A stretch of DNA of 64,000 nt from Escherichia coli. Lineage in GTDB: Bacteria; Pseudomonadota; Gammaproteobacteria; Enterobacterales; Enterobacteriaceae. A program made the translations under genes and the position numbers. The stretch lies in the NCBI RefSeq assembly GCF_003790525.1, contig NZ_CP033635.1; one strand, 5' to 3'. A model generated the notes under the pieces. It saw only the letters and a list, made by a program, of their open reading frames with translations, was not told the DNA's origin and ran no database searches. Every line of letters begins with the position of its first letter. Position 1 is the first letter of the stretch. Below are positions 3,073 to 57,945 of this stretch, in pieces.

Positions 3073-3157
3073 AACGAACAGAGCGTGGCATTTTGCTCTC
3101 CTGCCTGCGGAAAAACCCTCGTTTTACACAGCGAATGTGTGTAACTTTAGGATAATC

Positions 3158-3451
3158 TTAGCGTGGCAGCGAGATTTTACGTTCTTTAGTTGGGCGATAA
3201 AGCACCAGCGTTTTACCGATGACCTGTACATTACAGGCGCCGGTTTCGCGCACGATAGCTTCCACGATCAAGGTTTTAGTTTCGCGATCTTCGGTGGCGA
3301 TTTTCACCTTGATGAGTTCATGGTGCTCTAACGCTTGTTCAATCTCGGCCAGCACCCCTTCGGTCAAACCATTACTGCCAAGCAGAACAACTGGCTTGAG
3401 CGGATGTGCCAGACCTTTCAGGTGCTGTTTTTGTTTAGTACTCAGATTCAT
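3158..3451 (-). CDS. yhbY: RNA-binding protein YhbY (CRM/CRS1-YhbY domain, ribosome assembly)
   Basis: 97-aa ORF MNLSTKQKQHLKGLAHPLKPVVLLGSNGLTEGVLAEIEQALEHHELIKVKIATEDRETK...; divergent from rlmE as in E. coli. Confidence 0.9.
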   Translation of the reverse strand: MNLSTKQKQHLKGLAHPLKPVVLLGSNGLTEGVLAEIEQALEHHELIKVKIATEDRETKTLIVEAIVRETGACNVQVIGKTLVLYRPTKERKISLPR

Positions 3452-3576
3452 CGTATTTTTTGCTTACGTTGGGATTGAAAACGGGTCATTCTACCGCCAT
3501 CTCCCATATATCACCAAATAGGCGCGTAAAAATTTACGCAATTGGTTACGATGAGTTATCCCCATGGGAAAGTTAA

Positions 3577-4206
3577 ATGACAGGTAAGAAGCGTTCTGCC
3601 AGCTCCAGCCGCTGGCTTCAGGAACACTTTAGCGATAAATATGTTCAACAGGCACAGAAAAAGGGGTTACGTTCCCGTGCCTGGTTTAAACTTGATGAAA
3701 TACAGCAAAGTGACAAACTCTTTAAACCGGGAATGACGGTTGTCGACCTTGGTGCTGCGCCAGGTGGTTGGTCACAATATGTGGTCACCCAAATTGGCGG
3801 CAAAGGCCGTATCATCGCTTGCGATCTTTTACCTATGGATCCTATCGTTGGTGTGGACTTTCTTCAGGGCGATTTTCGTGATGAACTGGTGATGAAAGCA
3901 CTGCTGGAGCGCGTAGGCGACAGCAAAGTCCAGGTTGTCATGTCCGATATGGCACCAAACATGAGCGGAACACCGGCGGTGGATATCCCCCGTGCCATGT
4001 ATCTGGTGGAACTGGCGCTAGAAATGTGTCGTGATGTATTAGCGCCAGGTGGCAGTTTTGTAGTGAAGGTGTTCCAGGGCGAAGGTTTCGATGAGTATCT
4101 AAGGGAAATTCGCTCCCTGTTTACGAAGGTCAAAGTTCGTAAGCCGGACTCTTCTCGTGCACGTTCACGGGAAGTGTATATTGTAGCGACCGGGCGTAAA
4201 CCCTAA
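3577..4206 (+). CDS. rlmE: 23S rRNA U2552 2'-O-ribose methyltransferase RlmE (FtsJ/RrmJ)
   Basis: 209-aa ORF with SAM-binding motif [15 protein letters not shown]; directly upstream of ftsH. Confidence 0.95.
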
Positions 4207-4305
4207 CCGGGAGATTTCAGACGAAAGTTTGAAAGATGCTGGATATAGAGTATCCTGACGCTGTTTTTAACACAGTTGTAATAAGAGGTTAATCCCTTGA
4301 GTGAC

Positions 4306-6240
4306 ATGGCGAAAAACCTAATACTCTGGCTGGTCATTGCCGTTGTGCTGATGTCAGTATTCCAGAGCTTTGGGCCCAGCGAGTCTAATGGCCGTAAGGT
4401 GGATTACTCTACCTTCCTACAAGAGGTCAATAACGACCAGGTTCGTGAAGCGCGTATCAACGGACGTGAAATCAACGTTACCAAGAAAGATAGTAACCGT
4501 TATACCACTTACATTCCGGTTCAGGATCCGAAATTACTGGATAACCTGTTGACCAAGAACGTCAAGGTTGTCGGTGAACCGCCTGAAGAACCAAGCCTGC
4601 TGGCTTCTATCTTCATCTCCTGGTTCCCGATGCTGTTGCTGATTGGTGTCTGGATCTTCTTCATGCGTCAAATGCAGGGCGGCGGTGGCAAAGGTGCCAT
4701 GTCGTTTGGTAAGAGCAAAGCGCGCATGCTGACGGAAGATCAGATCAAAACGACCTTTGCTGACGTTGCGGGCTGCGACGAAGCAAAAGAAGAAGTTGCT
4801 GAACTGGTTGAGTATCTGCGCGAGCCGAGCCGCTTCCAGAAACTCGGCGGTAAGATCCCGAAAGGCGTCCTGATGGTCGGTCCTCCGGGTACCGGTAAAA
4901 CGCTGCTGGCGAAAGCGATTGCAGGCGAAGCGAAAGTTCCGTTCTTTACTATCTCCGGTTCTGACTTCGTAGAAATGTTCGTCGGTGTGGGTGCATCCCG
5001 TGTTCGTGACATGTTCGAACAGGCGAAGAAAGCGGCACCGTGCATCATCTTTATCGATGAAATCGACGCCGTAGGCCGCCAGCGTGGCGCAGGTCTGGGC
5101 GGTGGTCACGATGAACGTGAACAGACTTTGAACCAGATGCTGGTTGAGATGGATGGCTTCGAAGGTAACGAAGGTATCATCGTTATCGCCGCGACTAACC
5201 GTCCGGACGTTCTTGACCCGGCCCTGCTGCGTCCTGGCCGTTTCGACCGTCAGGTTGTGGTTGGCTTGCCAGATGTTCGTGGTCGTGAGCAGATCCTGAA
5301 AGTTCACATGCGTCGCGTACCATTGGCACCCGATATCGACGCGGCAATCATTGCCCGTGGTACTCCTGGTTTCTCCGGTGCTGACCTGGCGAACCTGGTG
5401 AACGAAGCGGCACTGTTCGCTGCTCGTGGCAACAAACGCGTTGTGTCGATGGTTGAGTTCGAGAAAGCGAAAGACAAAATCATGATGGGTGCGGAACGTC
5501 GCTCCATGGTGATGACGGAAGCGCAGAAAGAATCGACGGCTTACCACGAAGCGGGTCACGCGATTATCGGTCGCCTGGTGCCGGAACACGATCCGGTGCA
5601 CAAAGTAACGATTATCCCGCGCGGTCGTGCGCTGGGTGTGACCTTCTTCTTGCCTGAGGGCGACGCAATCAGCGCCAGCCGTCAGAAACTGGAAAGCCAG
5701 ATTTCTACGCTGTACGGTGGTCGTCTGGCAGAAGAGATCATCTACGGGCCGGAACATGTTTCTACCGGTGCGTCCAACGATATTAAAGTTGCGACCAACC
5801 TGGCACGTAACATGGTGACTCAGTGGGGTTTCTCTGAGAAACTCGGTCCGCTGCTGTATGCGGAAGAAGAAGGTGAAGTGTTCCTCGGCCGTAGCGTAGC
5901 GAAAGCGAAACATATGTCCGATGAAACTGCACGTATCATCGACCAGGAAGTGAAAGCACTGATTGAGCGTAACTATAATCGTGCGCGTCAGCTTCTGACC
6001 GACAATATGGATATTCTGCATGCGATGAAAGATGCTCTCATGAAATATGAGACTATCGACGCACCGCAGATTGATGACCTGATGGCACGTCGCGATGTAC
6101 GTCCGCCAGCGGGCTGGGAAGAACCAGTCGCTTCTAACAATTCTGGCGACAATGGTAGTCCAAAGGCTCCACGTCCGGTTGATGAACCGCGTACGCCGAA
6201 CCCGGGTAACACCATGTCAGAGCAGTTAGGCGACAAGTAA
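4306..6240 (+). CDS. ftsH: ATP-dependent zinc metalloprotease FtsH (HflB)
   Basis: ORF contains [19 protein letters not shown] membrane anchor, Walker [14 protein letters not shown] zinc motif; 644 aa from ATG 4306. The ORF also extends in frame to TTG 4297, which has the better Shine-Dalgarno spacing (AAGAGG 4283-4288). Confidence 0.92.
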
Positions 6241-6329: not shown

Positions 6330-7178
6330 ATGAAACTCTTTGCCCAGGGCACTTCACTGGACCTTAGCCATCCTCACGTAATGGGGATCCTCAACGTCAC
6401 GCCTGATTCCTTTTCGGATGGCGGCACGCATAACTCGCTGATAGATGCCGTGAAACATGCGAATCTGATGATCAACGCTGGCGCGACGATCATTGACGTT
6501 GGTGGCGAGTCCACGCGCCCAGGAGCGGCGGAAGTTAGCGTTGAAGAAGAGTTGCAACGTGTTATTCCTGTGGTTGAGGCAATTGCTCAACGCTTCGAAG
6601 TCTGGATCTCGGTAGATACATCCAAACCAGAAGTCATCCGTGAGTCAGCGAAAGTTGGCGCTCACATTATTAACGATATCCGCTCCCTTTCCGAACCTGG
6701 CGCTCTGGAGGCGGCTGCAGAAACCGGTTTACCGGTTTGTCTGATGCATATGCAGGGAAATCCAAAAACCATGCAGGAAGCGCCGAAGTATGACGATGTC
6801 TTTGCAGAAGTGAATCGCTACTTTATTGAGCAAATAGCACGTTGCGAGCAGGCGGGTATCGCAAAAGAGAAATTGTTGCTCGACCCCGGATTCGGTTTCG
6901 GTAAAAATCTCTCCCATAACTATTCATTACTGGCGCGCCTGGCTGAATTTCACCATTTCAACCTGCCGCTGTTGGTGGGTATGTCACGAAAATCGATGAT
7001 TGGGCAACTGCTGAACGTGGGGCCGTCCGAGCGCCTGAGCGGTAGTCTGGCCTGTGCGGTTATTGCCGCAATGCAAGGCGCGCACATCATTCGTGTTCAT
7101 GACGTCAAAGAAACCGTAGAAGCGATGCGGGTGGTGGAAGCCACTCTGTCTGCAAAGGAAAACAAACGCTATGAGTAA
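6330..7178 (+). CDS. folP: Dihydropteroate synthase
   Basis: ORF from ATG 6330: [32 protein letters not shown]..., 282 aa; ORF-track start at 6264 is an upstream in-frame extension. Confidence 0.93.
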
Positions 7179-8508
7179 TCGTAAATATTTCGGTACCGAT
7201 GGGATTCGTGGTCGTGTAGGGGATGCGCCGATCACACCTGATTTTGTGCTTAAGCTGGGTTGGGCAGCGGGTAAAGTGCTGGCGCGCCACGGCTCCCGTA
7301 AGATCATTATTGGTAAAGACACGCGTATTTCTGGCTATATGCTGGAGTCAGCACTGGAAGCGGGTCTGGCGGCTGCCGGTCTTTCCGCACTCTTCACTGG
7401 CCCGATGCCAACACCGGCCGTGGCTTATCTGACGCGTACCTTCCGCGCAGAGGCCGGAATTGTGATATCTGCATCGCATAACCCGTTCTACGATAATGGC
7501 ATTAAATTTTTCTCTATCGACGGCACCAAACTACCGGATGCAGTTGAAGAAGCCATCGAAGCGGAAATGGAAAAAGAGATCAGCTGTGTTGATTCGGCAG
7601 AACTGGGTAAAGCCAGCCGTATCGTTGATGCTGCGGGTCGCTATATCGAGTTTTGCAAAGCCACGTTCCCGAACGAACTTAGCCTCAGTGAACTGAAGAT
7701 TGTGGTGGATTGTGCAAACGGTGCGACTTACCACATCGCGCCGAACGTGCTGCGTGAACTGGGGGCGAACGTTATCGCTATCGGTTGTGAGCCGAACGGT
7801 GTAAATATCAATGCCGAAGTGGGGGCTACCGACGTTCGCGCGCTCCAGGCTCGTGTGCTGGCTGAAAAAGCGGATCTCGGTATTGCCTTCGACGGCGACG
7901 GCGATCGCGTGATTATGGTTGACCATGAAGGCAATAAAGTCGATGGCGATCAGATCATGTATATCATCGCGCGTGAAGGTCTTCGTCAGGGCCAGCTGCG
8001 TGGTGGCGCTGTGGGTACATTGATGAGCAACATGGGGCTTGAACTGGCGCTGAAACAGTTAGGAATTCCATTTGCGCGCGCGAAAGTGGGTGACCGCTAC
8101 GTACTGGAAAAAATGCAGGAGAAAGGCTGGCGTATCGGTGCAGAGAACTCCGGTCATGTGATCCTGCTGGATAAAACCACTACCGGTGACGGCATCGTTG
8201 CTGGCTTGCAGGTGCTGGCGGCGATGGCACGTAACCATATGAGCCTGCACGACCTTTGCAGCGGCATGAAAATGTTCCCGCAAATCCTGGTAAACGTGCG
8301 TTACACCGCAGGTAGCGGCGATCCGCTGGAGCATGAATCAGTCAAAGCTGTGACCGCAGAAGTTGAAGCGGCGCTGGGTAGCCGTGGACGTGTGCTGTTG
8401 CGTAAATCCGGCACCGAACCGTTAATTCGCGTGATGGTGGAAGGCGAAGACGAAGCGCAGGTGACTGAATTTGCACACCGCATCGCCGATGCAGTAAAAG
8501 CCGTTTAA
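7171..8508 (+). CDS. glmM: Phosphoglucosamine mutase
   Basis: 445-aa [21 protein letters not shown]... with phosphoserine loop SASHNP; overlaps folP stop by 8 nt. Confidence 0.95.
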
Positions 8509-9082: not shown

Positions 9083-9169
9083 GCCGAGGTGGTGGAATTG
9101 GTAGACACGCTACCTTGAGGTGGTAGTGCCCAATAGGGCTTACGGGTTCAAGTCCCGTCCTCGGTACCA
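9083..9169 (+). tRNA. leuU: tRNA-Leu (long variable arm, CCA-encoded)
   Basis: GCCGAGGTGGTGGAATTGGTAGACACGCTACCTTGAGGTGGTAGTGCCCAATAGGGCTTACGGGTTCAAGTCCCGTCCTCGGTACCA; acceptor stem GCCGAGG/CCTCGGT, T-loop GGTTCAAGTCC; immediately downstream of secG. Confidence 0.9.
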
Positions 9170-9627: not shown

Positions 9628-11253
9628 ATGACAGTATTCAACAAATTTGCTAGAAGTTTTAAATCTCATTGGTTGTTGTATCTTTGTGTTATTGTTTTTG
9701 GTATTACGAACTTAGTCGCCTCTTCCGGAGCGCATATGGTTCAGCGATTGCTGTTCTTCGTCCTGACCATCCTGGTTGTTAAACGTATATCATCCCTTCC
9801 GCTTCGCCTGCTTGTTGCCGCACCATTTGTGTTACTGACTGCGGCAGACATGAGTATTAGCCTCTATTCATGGTGTACCTTTGGTACAACTTTCAATGAT
9901 GGATTTGCGATTAGTGTGCTGCAGAGTGATCCGGATGAAGTTGTGAAAATGTTGGGGATGTATATCCCTTATCTATGTGCTTTTGCTTTTTTATCCCTTC
10001 TTTTTTTGGCAGTAATAATAAAATATGATGTTTCCTTGCCGACAAAAAAAGTGACAGGAATATTATTGCTGATTGTCATTTCGGGCAGTTTATTTTCAGC
10101 TTGTCAATTTGCTTATAAAGATGCAAAAAATAAAAAAGCGTTCAGTCCATATATACTAGCGTCTCGATTTGCTACCTATACACCGTTTTTCAATCTCAAT
10201 TATTTTGCTTTAGCAGCGAAAGAGCATCAAAGATTACTCTCAATTGCAAACACGGTGCCGTATTTTCAATTATCAGTCAGGGATACAGGTATTGATACCT
10301 ACGTGTTGATTGTGGGGGAGTCTGTACGTGTCGACAATATGTCTTTGTATGGATACACACGCTCTACGACACCGCAAGTCGAAGCACAAAGAAAACAGAT
10401 CAAACTGTTTAATCAAGCAATAAGCGGTGCACCTTACACTGCGCTGTCGGTTCCCCTTTCTTTAACTGCTGATTCTGTTTTGAGTCATGACATTCATAAT
10501 TACCCGGACAACATTATTAATATGGCTAATCAAGCAGGATTTCAGACTTTCTGGCTAAGCTCGCAATCCGCTTTTCGGCAGAATGGTACAGCAGTTACCA
10601 GTATCGCCATGCGCGCCATGGAAACAGTCTATGTCAGAGGATTTGATGAATTGTTGTTGCCGCATTTATCGCAAGCGTTACAGCAAAAGACGCAGCAAAA
10701 GAAACTGATTGTTCTTCATTTAAATGGAAGCCATGAACCGGCTTGTAGCGCCTATCCGCAATCCAGCGCCGTGTTTCAACCGCAGGACGATCAGGATGCC
10801 TGCTATGACAACTCCATTCATTACACAGATAGTTTGCTAGGTCAGGTTTTTGAATTATTAAAAGATCGCCGCGCCTCGGTCATGTATTTTGCCGACCACG
10901 GCCTGGAACGCGACCCTACGAAGAAGAACGTCTATTTTCATGGAGGCAGGGAGGCCAGCCAGCAGGCATATCATGTCCCGATGTTTATCTGGTATAGCCC
11001 CGTTCTTGGGGATGGCGTGGATCGCACAACGGAAAACGATATCTTTTCCACTGCGTACAATAATTACCTTATTAATGCGTGGATGGGGGTAACAAAGCCG
11101 GAACAGCCGCAAACGCTGGAGGAAGTGATTGCACACTATAAAGGAGACTCACGGGTTGTAGATGCAAACCATGATGTTTTCGATTTTGTGATGCTAAGAA
11201 AGGAGTTTACTGAGGATAAGCAAGGTAACCCCACCCCTGAAGGGCAGGGTTGA
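9628..11253 (+). CDS. yhbX: Inner-membrane sulfatase-family protein, phosphoethanolamine-transferase (EptA/OpgE)-like paralogue
   Basis: 541-aa ORF from ATG 9628 (MTVFNKFARSFKSHWLLYLCVIVFG...), N-terminal hydrophobic segments followed by a soluble domain; gene is AT-rich relative to neighbours. Confidence 0.8.
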   Translation: MTVFNKFARSFKSHWLLYLCVIVFGITNLVASSGAHMVQRLLFFVLTILVVKRISSLPLRLLVAAPFVLLTAADMSISLYSWCTFGTTFNDGFAISVLQSDPDEVVKMLGMYIPYLCAFAFLSLLFLAVIIKYDVSLPTKKVTGILLLIVISGSLFSACQFAYKDAKNKKAFSPYILASRFATYTPFFNLNYFALAAKEHQRLLSIANTVPYFQLSVRDTGIDTYVLIVGESVRVDNMSLYGYTRSTTPQVEAQRKQIKLFNQAISGAPYTALSVPLSLTADSVLSHDIHNYPDNIINMANQAGFQTFWLSSQSAFRQNGTAVTSIAMRAMETVYVRGFDELLLPHLSQALQQKTQQKKLIVLHLNGSHEPACSAYPQSSAVFQPQDDQDACYDNSIHYTDSLLGQVFELLKDRRASVMYFADHGLERDPTKKNVYFHGGREASQQAYHVPMFIWYSPVLGDGVDRTTENDIFSTAYNNYLINAWMGVTKPEQPQTLEEVIAHYKGDSRVVDANHDVFDFVMLRKEFTEDKQGNPTPEGQG

Positions 11254-11260
11254 TGTCGAA

Positions 11261-12619
<1,359 letters not shown>

Positions 12620-12654
12620 TTAATTAACTGATGATGAGCCTGGATTTCCGCTCT

Positions 12655-12695
12655 CACTGAATTTTTATGCAAAATAAATGAGTTTTCATTTAATC
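12655..12695 (-). promoter_or_regulatory. Putative tandem ARG boxes (ArgR operator) in argG promoter region
   Basis: TGAATTTTTATGCA and ATGAGTTTTCATTT, two adjacent imperfect palindromes resembling TGAAT-N4-ATTCA, about 50-90 nt upstream of argG start. Confidence 0.4.
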
Positions 12696-12829
12696 ATCTT
12701 TTATCGGAGACAGGAAGAGTTTAGTGTGTTTTTTGTAAAATAATGCGCTTAAGGGAGAGCAGGAGAAGGCAAAAGTATTCAACAAATGAAAGTGAACTGG
12801 ATATTCATTCACGTGATTAGCAATAAACG

Positions 12830-12859
12830 TTGACAAAATGTGGCATGGATCACTATAAT
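12830..12859 (+). promoter_or_regulatory. Near-consensus sigma70 promoter upstream of metY (TTGACA-N18-TATAAT)
   Basis: TTGACA at 12830-12835 and TATAAT at 12854-12859 on + strand; a second weaker -10 TAGAAT at 12931-12936 lies closer to the tRNA. Confidence 0.5.
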
Positions 12860-12951
12860 GCCTGCAGATTTTACGTCCCGTCTCGGTACACCAAATCCCA
12901 GCAGTATTTGCATTTTTTACCCAAAACGAGTAGAATTTGCCACGTTTCAGG

Positions 12952-13028
<77 letters not shown>

Positions 13029-13152
13029 CTTTCCCTTAGAGTCCTTTTTCAAATATACTGTGAAGACTTCGGCCTTCGTAGTGGGATTTGAAAAAATCCT
13101 TCTGGAAAGTGCTCCAGACCGCAGTTGCGGTTATAGGGTTCAGTTATATAAA

Positions 13153-13177
13153 GCCCCGATTTATCGGGGTTTTTTGT
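13153..13177 (+). terminator. Rho-independent terminator/attenuator downstream of metY
   Basis: aaaGCCCCGATttATCGGGGttttttgtt; a second weaker hairpin GGGCtttaGGCCC+T7 at 13196-13217. Confidence 0.6.
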
Positions 13178-13234
13178 TATCTGACTACAGAATAACTGGG
13201 CTTTAGGCCCTTTTTTTATGTCTTGGGGGTGGGC

Positions 13235-13687
13235 TTGTCCACATTAGAGCAAAAATTAACAGAGATGATTACTGCGCCAGTTGAGGCCCTGGGTTTTGAA
13301 CTGGTTGGCATCGAATTTATTCGCGGTCGCACATCCACACTGCGCATCTATATTGATAGTGAAGATGGCATCAATGTTGATGATTGTGCTGATGTGAGCC
13401 ACCAGGTAAGTGCTGTGCTGGATGTTGAAGATCCCATCACCGTTGCTTATAACCTGGAAGTCTCCTCACCGGGTCTCGATCGCCCACTGTTCACGGCTGA
13501 ACACTACGCCCGTTTCGTCGGAGAAGAGGTGACTCTGGTTCTCCGCATGGCGGTACAAAACCGTCGTAAATGGCAGGGCGTTATCAAAGCGGTAGACGGT
13601 GAAATGATCACAGTTACCGTCGAAGGTAAAGATGAAGTGTTCGCGCTGAGTAATATCCAGAAGGCGAACCTGGTTCCCCACTTTTAA
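13235..13687 (+). CDS. rimP: Ribosome maturation factor RimP
   Basis: ORF (L/M)[31 protein letters not shown]...; no in-frame ATG, so a TTG (13235 or 13223) or GTG (13229) start is inferred; 150 aa from 13235. Confidence 0.8.
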
Positions 13688-17914: not shown

Positions 17915-17988
17915 ATGCGGGATAAGGCGTTTACGCCGCATCCGGCATGGATTGCCTGATGCGACGCTGGCGCGTCTTATCAGGCCAA
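17915..17988. repeat. REP/BIME element (two inverted REP palindromes) in infB-rbfA spacer
   Basis: GCGGGATAAGGCGTTTACGCCGCATCCGGC followed by GCCTGATGCGACGCTGGCGCGTCTTATCAGGCC. Confidence 0.7.
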
Positions 17989-19460: not shown

Positions 19461-19826
<366 letters not shown>

Positions 19827-19842: not shown

Positions 19843-19872
19843 AAAAGGGGGCCTGAGTGGCCCCTTTTTTCA
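19843..19872 (+). terminator. rpsO rho-independent terminator
   Basis: aaaaGGGGGCCtgagtGGCCCCtttttt. Confidence 0.75.
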
Positions 19873-20072
19873 AGCTGACGGCAGCAATTCACTGGAAACT
19901 AATGTATTGTTGCTATGAATGATCTTCCGTTGCAGAGGTTCGCGCGGCTAATGAGAGGCTTTACCCACATTGGGCTGGGTTAGGGTTGTCATTAGTCGCG
20001 AGGATGCGCAGAAGATCGGGTATTAACACCAGTGCCGTAAGGTACTGTCTAAGAAAGAGAAAGGATATTACA
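19873..20072 (+). promoter_or_regulatory. pnp 5' leader/promoter region (site of RNase III-dependent autoregulation in E. coli)
   Basis: 200-nt untranslated spacer between rpsO terminator and pnp UUG start; assignment of function is from established knowledge, exact processing site not mapped here. Confidence 0.45.
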
Positions 20073-47966: not shown

Positions 47967-49247
47967 TTATTGGCCTTCACAGGCTGTGTGGTACTGCGCC
48001 AGGATGTCCTGAATATGGTTGATAATGAGTTCCCGTGGTGTTGGCTGCAGCTCGCCGGAGCGAACTTTCACGTATTGCAGCGGCAAATACTGGCTGATCA
48101 GCGGTAGCGGAATTGGTGAATCCGCCAGATTACGAACCAGATGAGCGAAAGCGTCATCAATCTGGCTGTCCGGCCAGTAATAGCGCACGCGATCCGAGTA
48201 GCTATAACCACGCGCCAGACGACGCGCGTTGCCGTCACCGTGGTAGTGGCTTTGCCAGTATTCCGGGCGGTCGAGCATCACGTTTTCCAGCACCTGACGC
48301 AGACCAGAACAGGCTTTTGCTGGTACCAGTTCTTCTTCAATCGCCGCCAGAGAGAACAGAGCTTCACGCAGAGCAAAGGTCAGCGCCGGGCCAACTTTCA
48401 GAATGGCAAAGTGGTCAATCACCAGCTGGCGCAGCGATTGCGGCGTTTGGTAATCAGTAGAGTGCGCTTCGAAAATCAGCGTTTCGTAGTTTTCGACCAT
48501 CTGGCTTAAGGCGGTCGCTTTGACGGGCTGATAATCAATAACGTTGGTGTGATCGAATTCGACGCCGGGTTGAACCACCAGGGCAATAATGCGTGGCCAG
48601 ATGGCACTCAGACCTTGCTTTTCAAAGGCGTGACGATGGGCTTCCAGCGTGGCGCGGGCGGCATCCGGCGTGGTGACCGCCAGCTCGCTTAAGGTTTCAT
48701 GCGCGCCGCCAGGTACCGGTACTTCGGTACCAATGACATACTCCAGATCGGCCGCGCCAAAATGTTCACGGCAGGTTTCTTCCGCCACTTTCGCCAGACG
48801 AGCGGCGCGTTCGGCCACGATGTCATCAGTTAAGGGAATCGGATCGTCCTGACAGGACATGCTGCAATCAAGGTGAATTTTTTTGAATCCTGCCGCCACG
48901 TAGCTTTTAATCAAATCATCGGCATTGGCCATTGCCTGAGCGGCAGGCAGGTTTTGCCAGCGGTTTGGCCCCAGATGGTCGCCACCCAGAATCAACGCAT
49001 CCTGTGGGAAATTCAACGAGTCGGCGAGCTGACAAACAAAGCCGCGAAAATCGGCGGGCGTCATTCCGGTATAACCGCCGAACTGGTCCACCTGATTGGA
49101 GGTTGCTTCAATCAGTAACGGCGTTTGGTTTGCACTGGCGTAGCGGATTGCAGCTTCCAGCACCAGCGGATGTGCGGAACAAACGGCATAAATCCCATTT
49201 GTTTTGCCCTCTTTGTGCTGTCTCACCATTTCTGTCAGATGTTTCAC
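47967..49247 (-). CDS. kbaZ: Tagatose-bisphosphate aldolase non-catalytic subunit KbaZ (AgaZ)
   Basis: 426-aa ORF (GTG start) [55 protein letters not shown]... Confidence 0.9.
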
Positions 49248-49495: not shown

Positions 49496-50305
49496 ATGAG
49501 TAATACCGACGCTTCAGGTGAGAAGCGAATGACAGGCACCAGCGAGCGACGAGAACAGATCATTCAGCGTCTGCGACAGCAAGGGAGTGTGCAGGTTAAC
49601 GATCTGTCGGCATTGTATGGCGTATCTACTGTGACGATCCGCAACGATCTGGCGTTTCTGGAAAAGCAGGGGATCGCTGTGCGTGCCTATGGTGGCGCGT
49701 TGATCTGCGATAGCACAACGCCGTCAGTCGAGCCATCAGTGGAAGATAAAAGCGCACTGAACACCGCGATGAAACGCAGCGTTGCGAAAGCTGCCGTTGA
49801 GTTGATTCAGCCTGGTCATCGGGTGATCCTCGACTCCGGGACCACCACTTTTGAGATTGCTCGTCTGATGCGCAAGCACACCGACGTAATTGCGATGACC
49901 AACGGTATGAACGTGGCTAATGCGTTGCTGGAAGCGGAAGGCGTTGAGCTGCTGATGACCGGGGGGCATTTGCGCCGTCAGTCGCAATCTTTTTACGGTG
50001 ATCAGGCTGAGCAATCGCTGCAAAATTACCACTTCGATATGCTGTTTCTTGGTGTAGATGCGATCGATCTGGAGCGCGGCGTCAGCACGCATAATGAAGA
50101 TGAAGCCCGTTTAAACCGTCGGATGTGCGAAGTTGCGGAACGGATCATCGTGGTCACCGATTCCAGTAAGTTCAACCGTTCCAGTTTACATAAGATCATT
50201 GATACTCAACGTATCGACATGATCATTGTTGATGAAGGCATTCCTGCGGATAGTCTGGAAGGACTGCGAAAGGCTGGGGTTGAAGTGATTCTGGTCGGGG
50301 AGTGA
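49496..50305 (+). CDS. agaR: DeoR-family repressor of the aga regulon
   Basis: 269-aa ORF with N-terminal HTH ([33 protein letters not shown]) and DeoR C-terminal sugar-phosphate domain. Confidence 0.93.
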
Positions 50306-50359
50306 GAAAGGGTGCCCGCTGGTCAACACGAATGCGTTCGGCGGGCATTGTGAACACCA

Positions 50360-50824
50360 TCAATGGGTTTCTTCTGTCTCTCGGGTGAGGGTTTCCCAGT
50401 CGGCAGGAGGATGTCCTCTTTTTAACATTTTGCTGAATACGGTATAGGCATCTGTTTTTTTACCGTAGGTGCGCAGCGTGTTTTCATCGTTCATCCATCC
50501 CAGAATGATGACTTTCTCTTTTTCACTATAACGAAAGAAGAGACGATAACGACCAGCACCAAATTTTACCCGTGACCAGTCTTTATTTTTCCCAGAGCCT
50601 AACGACTTGCCATGACGGAATGCCGGTGATGATGGATTGACCGTGATATGCTCCTCAATCACTTTATGGACTACCGCCAATAACTTTGTGGCGGCTTTTC
50701 TCTGATAATTTTCAGGATCTTTTCCCTTTAATGTCTCGACTTCGGCAACTAAAGCGTCGTAGGTTTCCTGAAAACAGGGATGAGCATATAGCGCCCAACC
50801 ATTAACCCTTTGTGGAAAATCCAT
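50360..50824 (-). CDS. yhaV: Type II toxin YhaV (ribonuclease)
   Basis: 154-aa ORF MDFPQRVNGWALYAHPCFQETYDALVAEVETLKGKDPENYQRKAATKLLAVVHK... Confidence 0.9.
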   Translation of the reverse strand: MDFPQRVNGWALYAHPCFQETYDALVAEVETLKGKDPENYQRKAATKLLAVVHKVIEEHITVNPSSPAFRHGKSLGSGKNKDWSRVKFGAGRYRLFFRYSEKEKVIILGWMNDENTLRTYGKKTDAYTVFSKMLKRGHPPADWETLTRETEETH

Positions 50825-51159
50825 TATTCGTCGTCGCCAATCTCATCGTCAATGTTGACGTCCATGCCAGCGACAAGTTTCTTTCCTTGTTGAGTGTCGA
50901 ATGGACGAGTTTTTTGCGGGTTGTTCTGGATATCTGCATCCAGAAAACGCAAAAATGCATTCATAGTATGATCCTCCTGTTCATCTCCCAGTCGGCACAT
51001 AAATACTTGCCCACCAGGCAGAATTTCGTAATGAATGCTGTCCAGGCCTGGCTTCAGTTTTAAGGCCTCACGCACTGGCGCGGGGATAGTTGTTTGTCCG
51101 CGTATCGTGACCTTTGATTCAGTGGTCAGTACAGCGTTAGAGCGAGCATTAGCGGGCAT
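50824..51159 (-). CDS. prlF: Type II antitoxin PrlF (SohA), AbrB-fold
   Basis: 111-aa ORF MPANARSNAVLTTESKVTIRGQTTIPAPVREALKLKPGLDSIHYEILPGGQVFMCRL... with acidic C-terminus; stop overlaps yhaV start by 1 nt. Confidence 0.9.
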   Translation of the reverse strand: MPANARSNAVLTTESKVTIRGQTTIPAPVREALKLKPGLDSIHYEILPGGQVFMCRLGDEQEDHTMNAFLRFLDADIQNNPQKTRPFDTQQGKKLVAGMDVNIDDEIGDDE

Positions 51160-51307
51160 TATTTACTGTCCTTTTACAGCCTGTTTTCTGCTCAAATTAT
51201 AAGCTTGAACTAAGGTAATGCAAATGCATTATTAATGGATGTGTGGACTTTAAACAATAAAAACATGGCACTAAGGCCATGTTTTGCGAGGGACGTTCCA
51301 AAAGAAA

Positions 51308-52879
51308 TCAGGTCACCGGTGCTGGGTTAAACACCGCCAGCTGGTTATGCAGTCCCCATTGATCCGAGAAAGTTTTCTTCTTCCCGCTGGCGACGTCGAG
51401 AATAAAGTGGAACAACTTCCAGCCCACTTCTTCAATGGTTTCTTCGCCGGTAGCGATAGTGCCCGCGTTAATATCCATTAAATCAAACCAGCGGTTCGCC
51501 AGCTCGGTGCGGGTCGCCATTTTAATGACCGGTACCGCCATCAGGCCGTACGGCGTACCACGACCGGTCGTAAACACTTGCACAGTGATACCCGAAGCCA
51601 CCTGTTGCGTGCCACAGACAAAATCGCTGGCTGGCGTCGCGGCGTAAATTAATCCGCGTTTAGTCGGGCGTTGGCCGGGCGACAGCACTTCAACAATTGC
51701 ACTTTTACCCGATTTAGCAATGGAGCCGAGCGCTTTCTCCACCACATTTGCCAGACCGCCTTTCTTGTTGCCCGGCGAAGGGTTGGCGCTGCGGTCGGTT
51801 TTTCCCATATTGAGATAGTTATCGTACCACTCCATCTCCTCCAGCAGCCGTTTGCCGACCTCTTCGTTCACTGCGCGTGGTGTCAGCAGATGGATCGCGT
51901 CACGCACTTCCGTGACTTCTGAAAACATCACCGTTGCGCCGCAGCGCACCAGTAGATCAGACGCATACCCAACCGCCGGGTTTGCCGTTACGCCAGAAAA
52001 CGCATCGCTGCCACCGCACTGCATGCCGACAACCAGTTCTGAAGCCGGACAGGTTTCTCGCTGTCGTTGATTCAGTTTGTGCAAATGGCGTTCGGCGACC
52101 TGCAAAATATCCTCGACCATGGACTGAAAGCCGACATGCTTTTCATCCTGCAAACTGACAATGCTGGCGCTTTCTACTGGAATAGCTTGCACATCATCCG
52201 TTCCAGTCAGCAGGCGCTCAGGCTGCAACTTTTCACAACCCAGACCAATCACCATTACTTCGCCGCCAAAGTTAGGGTTCAGCGAAATATTGTGGATGGT
52301 ACGAATAGGCACAACTGCCGCCGGTGCGTTAATCGCCACGCCACAGCCGTACAAATGATTCAGCCCCACCACGCCATCGACGTTCGGGTATTTCGGTAGC
52401 AGATCGCGTTCAATGATTTTTACTACATAGTCCACCACGCCTGCTACACAGTGGACGCTGGTGGTGATGCCGAGCAGGTTTTTAGTGCCCACGCTGCCAT
52501 CGGCATTGCGATAGCCCTCAAAGGTGTATCCTTCCAGCGGCGGTAAGGGTTCCGGGACTTTGGTTGCCAGTGGCAGCGTGTGTAACGGCGGCGCTTCCGG
52601 TAGTACAACCATTGATTCGTCGATCCAGCTTCCGCGTGGGATTGCGCGCACGGCGTAACCAATCACTTCGCCATAACGAATAATTTCACCATTAGCTGGA
52701 ATGTCCAGCAATGCGACTTTATGCCCCTGGGGAATATGTTCAATTAATTCCAGCCCATCCGGAAAACGCGTTCCTGCTTTCAGGCCATTATCATTAACAA
52801 TAATTGCCACATTATCTGTGTCGTGAACTTTTATATAAAACGCAGTTGGCGTTTCTTGTCTGATTTCGATGTTGGCCAT
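51308..52879 (-). CDS. garD: Galactarate dehydratase
   Basis: 523-aa [63 protein letters not shown]... Confidence 0.95.

Positions 52880-57568: not shown

Positions 57569-57945
<377 letters not shown>

Follow-up and report, generated by a model that had tools for sequence, protein, structure and literature searches.

An intact prlF-yhaV toxin-antitoxin operon at the garD-agaR junction of Escherichia coli, in a cassette with signs of recent exchange between species

The 64,000-nucleotide stretch of Escherichia coli DNA analysed here (the window) very probably carries the chromosomal prlF-yhaV type II toxin-antitoxin (TA) operon of this species in an intact and self-contained form. We infer from sequence comparison that the operon belongs to a discrete module, which appears to have passed between Escherichia species at a later time than the divergence of the genes on either side of it. 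The two genes are as follows:

50824-51159, minus strand: prlF, 111 aa, antitoxin and autorepressor with an AbrB/SpoVT/MazE-type N-terminal domain and an acidic C-terminus
50360-50824, minus strand: yhaV, 154 aa, RelE/ParE-superfamily ribosome-dependent mRNA endonuclease toxin

The open reading frames form a bicistronic unit with the antitoxin gene first, and base 50824, the third letter of TAATG, is common to the prlF stop and the yhaV start codon. On the upstream side, garD (51308-52879, minus strand) is read in the same direction and is separated from prlF by a spacer of 148 bp (51160-51307); on the other side, agaR (49496-50305, plus strand) converges with yhaV across a gap of 54 bp, and the identities of both neighbours were confirmed by NCBIfam equivalogs. 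Order, orientation and every spacing (148 bp, 1-nt overlap, 54 bp) equal those of K-12 MG1655 b3128-b3131, in which the pair is b3129-b3130, and PGAP labels the genes yhaV and prlF in the RefSeq chromosome of strain SC516, which is 100% identical. The original prediction, a known E. coli type II TA pair with a 1-nt stop/start overlap lying directly downstream of and co-directional with garD at a distance of 148 bp, thus agrees with the coordinates, with the Pfam and NCBIfam matches given below and with the K-12 identity. It had also placed the pair between two sugar-acid loci; the position between agaR and garD stands, but the aga genes degrade the amino sugar N-acetylgalactosamine. The aga cluster beside the pair is intact here and partly deleted in K-12. 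The operon at its usual chromosomal site is an already known, ordinary system, and the K-12 pair PrlF-YhaV (SohA-YhaV) has reportedly been characterised since 2007, in work attributed to Schmidt et al. (2007, J Mol Biol 372:894).

YhaV is 100% identical in amino acid sequence to K-12 b3130 and matched Pfam Toxin_YhaV (PF11663) with an E-value of 7.8e-54 and 181.9 bits (cutoff 35) over 137 of the 138 model positions, while the profile search gave no NCBIfam match for it. When the AF2 model of the toxin (pLDDT 89, pTM 0.86) was compared with the PDB by Foldseek, the top 42 matches were PfiT, RelE, HigB, YoeB, ParE and related toxin chains, with PfiT, RelE and HigB2 as the best; E. coli RelE (4fxe_E) matched with a TM of 0.77 on the target and a probability of 1.00, and Mtb RelE1 was also among the matches. 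As modelled, YhaV carries a RelE-like alpha/beta (BECR) fold. Searching PDB sequences with YhaV returned no solved structure and one spurious match to ThreeFoil. R85, K87 and R94 never vary across 15 homologues of 37-99% identity, R70 and R98 hardly ever, and conserved YhaV arginines are needed for activity (PMC5408214). In the K-12 pair, YhaV stops growth and PrlF neutralises it by direct binding (PMC7781912, PMC5408214, PMC8546651). Cleavage by YhaV is described as ribosome-dependent and occurring before G (PMC8546651, PMC11980606), and that of mRNA by the K-12 toxin as RelE-like and codon-phased (PMC8546651); the passages of PMC7781912 and PMC11980606 that cite Choi 2017 likewise give ribosome-dependent, codon-phased cleavage for K-12 YhaV, while an earlier in-vitro report gave ribosome-independent cleavage (PMC5408214).

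The antitoxin matched Pfam PrlF_antitoxin (PF15937; E 2.2e-40) and the NCBIfam equivalog NF007429 (165.8 bits, cutoff 125); the family assignments of both proteins thereby stand well clear of chance expectation. Its match to the AbrB-domain model TIGR01439 (E 4.6e-06, 26.2 bits) fell below the cutoff of 28.3 and that to Pfam MazE_antitoxin (PF04014) was weak (E 0.0044). The AF2 model of PrlF is of moderate quality (pLDDT 77, pTM 0.40); Foldseek placed SpoVT, an archaeal AbrB-like protein, AbrB-N and MazE chains at PDB ranks 1-8 and Abh-N at rank 10, with rmsd values of 1.4-3.6 Å over 44-56 columns and probabilities of 0.95-1.00, the E-values being weak (0.016-0.5) because the domain is small. 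According to the model, the N-terminal ~45 residues are beta-rich and of AbrB-type fold, and the C-terminus is acidic (...VNIDDEIGDDE). The family and predicted-fold matches thus bear out what had been proposed for both proteins, an AbrB-type fold with an acidic tail for PrlF and an RNase for YhaV. No solved structure was found in a PDB sequence search with PrlF. In PMC7781912 and PMC5408214, the stoichiometry of the complex is given, second-hand, as PrlF2-YhaV4, and a prlF1 allele is described.

Both intergenic regions carry candidate signals:

51169-51174, minus strand: Shine-Dalgarno sequence AAAGGA, 9 nt before the prlF ATG, read from the sequence
51196-51224, minus strand: predicted sigma-70 promoter, with -35 TTTGCA (51224-51219), a 17-nt spacer and -10 TATAAT (51201-51196)
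51216-51231, no strand assigned: candidate operator, a perfect 7-2-7 palindrome TAATGCA-NN-TGCATTA that overlaps the -35
51250-51285, minus strand: intrinsic terminator after garD, with stem AAAACAUGGC/GCCAUGUUUU, a 6-nt loop and a U-rich tail
50313-50347, no strand assigned: hairpin TGCCCGC...GCGGGCA in the 54-bp yhaV/agaR gap, a possible but weak shared terminator

The promoter-like site has 10 of the 12 consensus matches in a consensus scan, and a -10 (TATAAT or TATACT) also follows TTGCAT at 16-17 nt in Pseudocitrobacter and Cedecea. The original prediction had suggested a search of 51160-51307 for a palindromic operator, and the palindrome at 51216-51231 lies in that interval. K-12, E. 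albertii, Pseudocitrobacter and Cedecea all have it unchanged within a spacer that otherwise diverges, and its core AATGCA-N2-TGCATT recurs ahead of prlF homologues, in Cedecea as well as on plasmids of Pantoea, Bradyrhizobium, Phaeobacter and Dinoroseobacter, with two copies on the Pantoea plasmid. Shuffling the 100-nt promoter region produced a palindrome with 7-nt arms in 5.2% of cases, and a chance test on the exact pattern was uninformative; because the palindrome alone is thus only marginally improbable, its assignment as an operator rests on conservation and on second-hand literature, namely PMC7781912, which, citing Schmidt 2007, describes binding of the PrlF-YhaV complex to a palindrome of the prlF promoter. 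Another promoter-like site, in the 3′ end of prlF (50852-50823), might serve yhaV alone; it was rejected as a main feature, given that published RNA-seq classified the two genes as transcribed together in one operon, at an antitoxin/toxin RNA ratio of 1.11 (PMC5535158).

K-12 and the window share the operator, -35, -10 and terminator without a difference; the five substitutions in the 148-bp spacer all fall outside the terminator stem, the palindrome and the -10, and the 800-bp coding region contains seven nucleotide differences. Five of these are in prlF, four of them non-synonymous, and they give the four amino acid changes H8N, Q39L, N88D and I89T relative to K-12 PrlF. Such an excess of replacements is what a decaying, non-functional remnant might display, but we regard this explanation as hardly credible. 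Both frames are full length, YhaV is the same as the active K-12 toxin, and operator, promoter, Shine-Dalgarno sequence and gene overlap are intact; moreover, E. albertii has the residues of the window at positions 8, 39 and 88 and the divergent lineage E69 has them at all four, so the variants represent a standing allele. Toxicity and neutralisation are established for the K-12 proteins, from which the window pair departs at no residue of YhaV and at 4 of the 111 residues of PrlF.

The original prediction held that read-through from garD could feed the TA operon, and that a strong terminator immediately after garD would speak against it. A conserved intrinsic terminator does follow garD, and after it come the operon's own predicted promoter and operator. 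In the terminator scan, the hairpin begins 23 nt past the garD stop and consists of a 10-bp stem followed by UUUUUAUUGUUU; its fold (-12.4 kcal/mol, z -3.33) was equalled by 1 of 200 shuffles, and it is kept in E. albertii and Pseudocitrobacter. It is predicted to insulate prlF-yhaV from garD transcription. Substantial read-through, by which induction of galactarate catabolism would co-induce the TA pair, could draw on the co-directional arrangement and the short spacer, on the linkage of garD and prlF, which E. albertii retains, as does Pseudocitrobacter although the pair does not adjoin agaR there, and on the moderate terminator core of six strong pairs (four of them G-C), from which some leakage is plausible. 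We nevertheless consider it unlikely. The hairpin and U-tract are canonical and directly follow garD, homologues with the same operator stand on plasmids behind unrelated upstream genes, and the pair is classed as one operon transcript by the RNA-seq cited above. Furthermore, the terminator sits inside the TA cassette, between garD and the prlF promoter, and the cassette therefore has its own upstream insulation. Some leak-through from garD may occur, but nothing in the sequence favours it; a literature search for co-expression of garD and prlF found nothing relevant. At the other end of the cassette, the stem of the yhaV/agaR hairpin folds, with a whole-region z of only -0.83 and without a good U-tract, and the terminator scan did not call it.

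We propose that transcription of prlF and yhaV, which are translationally coupled through TAATG with the antitoxin gene in front, would start near 51190 from the operon's own promoter, with garD read-through adding little. From the literature on the K-12 proteins, PrlF would bind the palindrome through its AbrB-type N-terminal domain, the PrlF-YhaV complex would repress the operon, and PrlF would neutralise YhaV by direct binding, probably with its acidic C-terminal part contacting the toxin. Free YhaV, again by analogy with the K-12 protein, would act as a ribosome-dependent RelE-type mRNA endonuclease and arrest translation.

With the ribosome-dependent mRNA interferase TA systems RelBE and HigBA, the pair shares the toxin fold, as matched by the YhaV model, and a RelE-like cleavage in published work (PMC8546651). 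However, those toxins have about 95 residues, whereas YhaV has 154 with two long N-terminal helices in the model; RelB is a ribbon-helix-helix and HigA a helix-turn-helix antitoxin, whereas PrlF is of AbrB/MazE type; and the PrlF2-YhaV4 stoichiometry reported in PMC7781912 also sets the pair apart. With MazE, AbrB and SpoVT, it shares the fold of the N-terminal ~45 residues of the antitoxin, whose predicted structure fits onto SpoVT (rmsd 1.4 Å) as well as onto the AbrB N-domain and MazE, and, according to published descriptions, the binding of a promoter palindrome; MazE, however, pairs with a MazF-type toxin and PrlF with a RelE-type one.

PrlF/YhaV pairs in the same gene order also occur on plasmids of Pantoea, Enterobacter, Roseobacteraceae, Bradyrhizobium and Acetobacter and on IncF plasmids of E. 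coli and E. marmotae, and homologue pairs have 1-nt or 4-nt overlaps or short gaps. Several plasmid pairs have the same operator core as the window, but YhaV identity to the plasmid proteins is only 37-54%, and the window copy is chromosomal and at a fixed site. Within the PrlF family, only a subset has the AATGCA-N2-TGCATT core, and GTAAGG-N4-6-CCTTAC takes its place in further plasmid homologues. Among the plasmids with pairs of this family, 175 of 328 are predicted to be conjugative, and the plasmid-borne pairs presumably act in plasmid maintenance. The frequency of the YhaV family on conjugative plasmids, the yhaV homologue in a P2-like Vibrio phage fragment and the discussion of many RelE/ParE-superfamily toxins as defence toxins (PMC11980606) might point to a role of the pair in anti-phage abortive infection and not in stress-linked control of growth or in selfish persistence. 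This role appears very unlikely here, given that neither PrlF nor YhaV matched a PADLOC model at E <= 0.01, that the neighbours are sugar-catabolism rather than defence genes, and that the literature consulted gives no experimental evidence for phage defence by PrlF-YhaV.

The original prediction named universal conservation of the pair at this site as something that would speak against it, and the pair proved not to be universal. It is present at the garD-agaR junction in 5114 of 5426 complete E. coli genomes (~94%), and 188 of the 5426, a B2 subset including UTI89, have a TA-less allele. This agrees with the published rarity of YhaV in ST95 and ST12 (PMC10790755), so that the patchy absence of the pair in B2 lineages such as ST95 is itself already on record. 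The unit that differs between the alleles is the following:

50300-51307, no strand assigned: cassette as insertion/deletion unit, ~1.0 kb, in place of which UTI89-type E. coli have a ~66-bp unrelated stretch

In the UTI89-type allele, agaR has a different 3′ end and encodes a 274-aa AgaR, and the spacer, of 51 bp, forms a hairpin of its own. The idea that this allele arose by recent deletion of the cassette was rejected, in view of a spacer and an agaR 3′ end unrelated to those of the TA-bearing allele and of a ~10% diverged copy of the empty allele in a malX island; judged from sequence, the empty junction is an old alternative allele. Only short, chance-level direct or inverted repeats and no target-site duplication were found at the cassette ends, and the cassette is therefore not a transposon-like insertion.

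We then compared the cassette with its flanks. The exchange inference draws on a single genome each of E. albertii and of a cryptic lineage, and a scan of genome contigs by exact peptide words gave eight loci, in close relatives only. Across ~50300-51400, the window is 96-100% identical to E. albertii, whereas the flanking genes are 88-92% identical, and the identity drops stepwise at about 51400 and about 50300. At third codon positions, the TA genes differ from E. albertii at 9 of 267 sites (3.4%) and the flanks at 434 of 1666 (26%; Fisher p 4e-21); the same pattern of low TA and high flank divergence was seen against E69. The 148-bp spacer is identical at 148 of 148 positions to that of E. 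albertii, compared with 75% for the garP-garD spacer, and the GC content of the cassette is 44-46% against 51-57% in the flanks, about 8 points lower. This contrast in divergence indicates, on sequence grounds, a recent interspecies exchange.

Alternatively, the cassette might be kept similar by exceptionally tight constraint or by a mutation rate that is low at this site, as the TA-to-flank ratio of third-position divergence is alike (about 4- to 8-fold) in the K-12, E69 and E. albertii comparisons. Against Pseudocitrobacter, however, third-position divergence is 47% in prlF and 43% in garD, and the TA proteins retain 76-83% amino acid identity while GarD retains 94%, the TA proteins thus diverging faster. 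Together with the identity of a non-coding spacer, the stepwise edges and the lower GC content, these values make constraint or mutation rate an improbable explanation. Taken together, we favour with moderate confidence the reading that a ~1.0-1.1-kb unit of terminator, operator/promoter, prlF and yhaV spread by homologous recombination among Escherichia species at one fixed site, at a much later date than the divergence of the flanking core genes. On this reading, the old TA-less allele survives in one B2 sublineage, and a malX island contains a fossil copy of it; the operator core, found both on conjugative plasmids of alphaproteobacteria and in the chromosomes of enterobacteria, would suggest an origin on a plasmid and a common code by which PrlF proteins of only ~35% identity recognise DNA.

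For the biology of the pair, these results make a coupling to galactarate catabolism by read-through unlikely, since the cassette brings its own terminator, promoter and operator. The cassette clearly bears the marks of a recent exchange between species at one fixed site, which may be of interest to TA specialists, and the operator half-site, kept in very distant PrlF homologues, offers a ready set of cases for testing how AbrB-type antitoxins recognise DNA.

The PrlF-YhaV pair lies in the window (contig NZ_CP033635.1) between garD and agaR, in the following arrangement.

50824-51159, minus strand: prlF, ORF of 111 aa
50360-50824, minus strand: yhaV, ORF of 154 aa
51308-52879, minus strand: garD, upstream of prlF on the same strand, spacer 148 bp
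49496-50305, plus strand: agaR, convergent with yhaV, gap 54 bp

Base 50824 is common to the prlF stop codon TAA and the yhaV start codon ATG (TAATG), and the ORF coordinates thus gave exactly the 1-nt stop/start overlap, the 148-bp spacer and the orientation along garD that had been described in the original prediction. YhaV matched Pfam Toxin_YhaV (E 7.8e-54) and PrlF matched Pfam PrlF_antitoxin (E 2.2e-40), the latter also scoring well above the cutoff of the NCBIfam equivalog NF007429, and the neighbours matched the NCBIfam GarD and AgaR equivalogs; the family assignment is unambiguous. The garD-prlF-yhaV-agaR-kbaZ order and all three spacings are the same in K-12 MG1655 (b3128-b3132), YhaV and its K-12 counterpart are 100% identical, and the SC516 chromosome, 100% identical across 1.6 kb, carries the NCBI pipeline annotation yhaV/prlF. 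These results bear out the earlier identification as a known E. coli type II TA system: the locus is PrlF-YhaV itself, not merely a relative, and all sequence-level defining features that were tested were found. Toxicity, neutralisation, DNA binding and ribosome dependence, established for a toxin with identical sequence, would be expected to apply here. No PADLOC defence model matched.

The description of both neighbours as sugar-acid loci failed for the aga locus, which belongs to amino-sugar catabolism. This N-acetylgalactosamine/galactosamine cluster is complete in the window (agaV, agaW, agaE, agaF, agaA (annotated nagA), agaS, kbaY, agaB, agaC, agaD and agaI), while in K-12 agaW and agaA are pseudogene fragments on either side of a deletion. 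The RNAs listed with it, the first six matching Rfam at gathering score, are ordinary for this region of E. coli.

38819-47980: aga/kba cluster
57569-57945: rnpB (RNase P RNA)
19843-20014: SraG sRNA
2308-2429: greA leader
19499-19613: S15 leader
13117-13217: rimP leader
17916-17986: naRNA4
9083-9169: tRNA-Leu(GAG)
12952-13028: tRNA-Met

PrlF differs from the K-12 protein at four residues (H8N, Q39L, N88D and I89T), corresponding to four of the 5 nt differences between the genes (window 50824-51159 against 7003-7338 of the K-12 locus), and both nt differences in yhaV are synonymous. The window residue is found at 3/4 of these positions (8, 39, 88) in E. albertii PrlF and at 4/4 in E69. The antitoxin outpaces the toxin in divergence, with 76% against 83% identity in Pseudocitrobacter and 57% against 65% in Cedecea. 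A sequence search found no solved structure of PrlF or YhaV; small alignments were built from homologues in hand, and structures of both proteins were predicted. The YhaV model was confident (pLDDT 89, pTM 0.86), and its best PDB matches suggest a RelE/ParE-superfamily toxin: PfiT, M. tuberculosis RelE1, HigB2 and E. coli RelE (4fxe_E, TM 0.77 on target), with ribosome-bound RelE also matched. R85, K87 and R94 were invariant in 15 homologues, in keeping with a report that YhaV activity depends on conserved arginines (PMC5408214). The identical K-12 toxin cleaves in a ribosome-dependent, codon-phased manner with G preferred after the cut (PMC8546651, PMC11980606), and the window YhaV would presumably act likewise. 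For PrlF the model was moderate (pLDDT 77); in the PDB comparison its N-terminal ~45 residues matched the N-domains of SpoVT, AbrB, Abh and MazE (1.4-3.6 Å), in agreement with sub-threshold AbrB and MazE profile matches, and the C-terminus is visibly acidic (...VNIDDEIGDDE). PrlF-YhaV resembles RelBE and HigBA in the toxin and MazE and AbrB in the antitoxin, a hybrid arrangement already known.

Two further YhaV matches were noted. In a P2-like Vibrio phage O395 fragment (476-1159), ORF14a is 45% identical to YhaV and follows a 64-aa ORF14b, far shorter than PrlF; ORF14b may be a truncated antitoxin or one of another kind. A 210-bp scaffold of Limosilactobacillus vaginalis DSM 5837 encodes a stretch that matches residues 113-143 of E. 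coli YhaV with 100% identity, so E. coli DNA has almost certainly contaminated this Lactobacillaceae draft assembly.

The garD-prlF spacer contains the following elements.

51285-51250, minus strand: predicted terminator, 10-bp perfect stem AAAACAUGGC / GCCAUGUUUU, 6-nt loop, then UUUUUAUUGUUU
51224-51196, minus strand: promoter-like site TTTGCA, 17 nt, TATAAT, downstream of the terminator
51216-51231: candidate operator, perfect 7-2-7 palindrome TAATGCA-NN-TGCATTA, overlapping the -35
9 nt before the prlF ATG, minus strand: Shine-Dalgarno AAAGGA

The terminator, called by the scan, begins its stem 23 nt past the garD stop; the fold (-12.4 kcal/mol, z -3.33) was equalled in 1/200 shuffles. The terminator is kept in E. 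albertii and in Pseudocitrobacter, in the latter with a sole difference that lengthens the stem. It is canonical in form, and its predicted strength is moderate. The proposal that garD read-through feeds the TA operon therefore fared poorly against this conserved terminator right after garD: substantial read-through is unlikely, and because terminator strength is moderate, some leak is possible. Since the spacer of TA-less E. coli is unrelated, the terminator lies inside the cassette, the ~1-kb unit that also holds the operator/promoter, prlF and yhaV, and the cassette therefore carries its own upstream insulation. Plasmid homologues with the same operator sit behind unrelated upstream genes. 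In published RNA-seq the operon is described as one transcript, the antitoxin/toxin ratio being 1.11 (PMC5535158), and another paper reports that prlF is repressed in a CpxR-dependent manner (PMC9600279). A promoter-like TTGACG-18-AATAAT (10/12 matches; 50823-50852, minus strand) in the prlF 3′-end, directly before the yhaV start codon, might allow transcription of the toxin alone, but the single transcript and its ratio argue against a strong internal promoter (PMC5535158).

The search for a palindromic operator in this spacer yielded a candidate, TAATGCA-NN-TGCATTA, which is the only sizeable inverted repeat there besides the terminator. Shuffling the 100-nt promoter part gives such a repeat in 5.2% of cases, and the palindrome therefore requires independent support. 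We found that AATGCA-TTGCATTACC was invariant, with the rest of the spacer diverged, in an upstream alignment of the window, K-12, E. albertii, Pseudocitrobacter and Cedecea davisae. The YhaV of Pseudocitrobacter is 83% identical and that of Cedecea 65%, the Cedecea pair lying among other genes, and in Cedecea the repeat grows to a perfect 24-nt palindrome. Homologues with 37-54% identity were retrieved by tblastn from 328 plasmids, 175 of them predicted conjugative. The AATGCA-N2-TGCATT core occurs upstream of prlF in two tandem copies on a Pantoea plasmid and once each on Bradyrhizobium, Phaeobacter and Dinoroseobacter plasmids, the PrlF of these last three being only 35-39% identical to that of the window. 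Plasmids of Novosphingobium (pCAR3), Acetobacter and Simplicispira carry GTAAGG-N4-6-CCTTAC at the equivalent place instead, a class that replaces the AATGCA core and is flanked by a TTGACA -35 and a TACCTA-like -10. In all cases compared, the repeat overlaps or lies between core promoter elements. According to passages citing Schmidt 2007 in two later papers, PrlF is a DNA-binding protein controlling its operon, and the PrlF2-YhaV4 complex binds a promoter palindrome upstream of prlF cooperatively (PMC7781912, PMC5408214). That 51216-51231 would be this published site is a well-supported inference.

Among 5426 complete E. coli genomes, 5114 (94%) have the full junction with prlF-yhaV. In 188 (3.5%), among them UTI89, ATCC 11775, E2348/69 and APEC strains, the junction is empty and all share one haplotype; the pair is thus not universally conserved at the garD-agaR site. 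This distribution agrees with a survey in which YhaV was prevalent in all sequence types but two, ST95 and ST12, both from phylogroup B2 (PMC10790755), as well as with its variable presence in urinary and AIEC isolates (PMC7500147, PMC7232551). The remaining genomes show other junction states. In ETEC6 (3074-5421 of its locus), for example, IS1A adjoins garD truncated at its 3′-end. This genome lacks prlF-yhaV, agaR, the whole aga cluster and the genes that normally separate it from the yra fimbrial cluster, with a truncated yra usher gene on the far side; this is an IS1-associated deletion of many kilobases. As a separate observation, Escherichia sp. MOD1-EC7003 has an intact prlF but a yhaV split over two contig ends: a 750-bp contig encodes residues 1-80, and the end of a second contig encodes residues 57-154. 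This suggests that the toxin gene of that lineage was interrupted by an insertion (probably of an IS element) or rearranged.

Homology to UTI89 ends at the agaR penultimate codon on one side and the garD stop codon on the other. Against ~1.0 kb of the window (roughly 50300-51307), UTI89 has ~66 bp, made up of a different AgaR tail and a 51-bp spacer that contains a hairpin as well. The AgaR C-terminus tracks the junction allele: beside the cassette the protein has 269 aa and ends ...VILVGE, and at the TA-less junction it has 274 aa and ends ...VILVGDHASSL. Each agaR spacer (window 50297-50362; TA-less locus L001 1797-1875) holds a TGCCCG...CGGGCA hairpin, which may be a distantly related agaR terminator. 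We found no transposon-like ends on the cassette. A recent deletion as the origin of the empty allele is ruled out by a ~10% diverged copy inside a malX island, present in roughly 280 genomes with the same AgaR tail and hairpin stem and a decayed garD. In E. coli AMA1167 (10711-13352 of its locus), this second, decayed TA-less junction is ~90% identical to that of UTI89 and adjoins malX, an enterotoxin gene and IS elements. Its AgaR has 274 aa, its garD (a 'UxaA family hydrolase') is frameshifted, and only fragments of the aldolase are present; the copy resembles a relic acquired from a different Escherichia lineage.

The TA-bearing arrangement has the same neighbours in E. albertii, and in Pseudocitrobacter the pair also follows garP-garD, but without agaR. 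Against E. albertii, the flanks (garP, garD, agaR, kbaZ) were 88-92% identical in nucleotides, whereas the cassette, both spacers included, was 96-100% identical (garD-prlF spacer 148/148). Third codon positions differed at 9/267 sites in prlF and yhaV, compared with 434/1666 in these four flanks (Fisher p 4e-21), and E69 showed the same contrast (15/267 against 245/1221). E69, titled E. coli, has no collinear garP upstream and shares only ~92% identity with the window across garD, agaR and kbaZ; so large a divergence is usual between E. coli proper and another Escherichia species or a cryptic clade. Constraint is an unlikely cause of the low cassette divergence: the third positions of prlF are as diverged from Pseudocitrobacter as those of garD (47% and 43%), and in this comparison the TA proteins have changed faster than GarD. 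The GC content of the cassette is ~8 points under that of the flanks. With one genome per other species compared, the best reading is that the cassette was probably exchanged among Escherichia lineages by recombination through conserved flanks, well after the lineages split.

Taken together, PrlF-YhaV is an already known system, to which these results add three points: a negative outcome for garD read-through, an operator conserved across a wide range of homologues, and a signature suggesting that the cassette passed between species recently.
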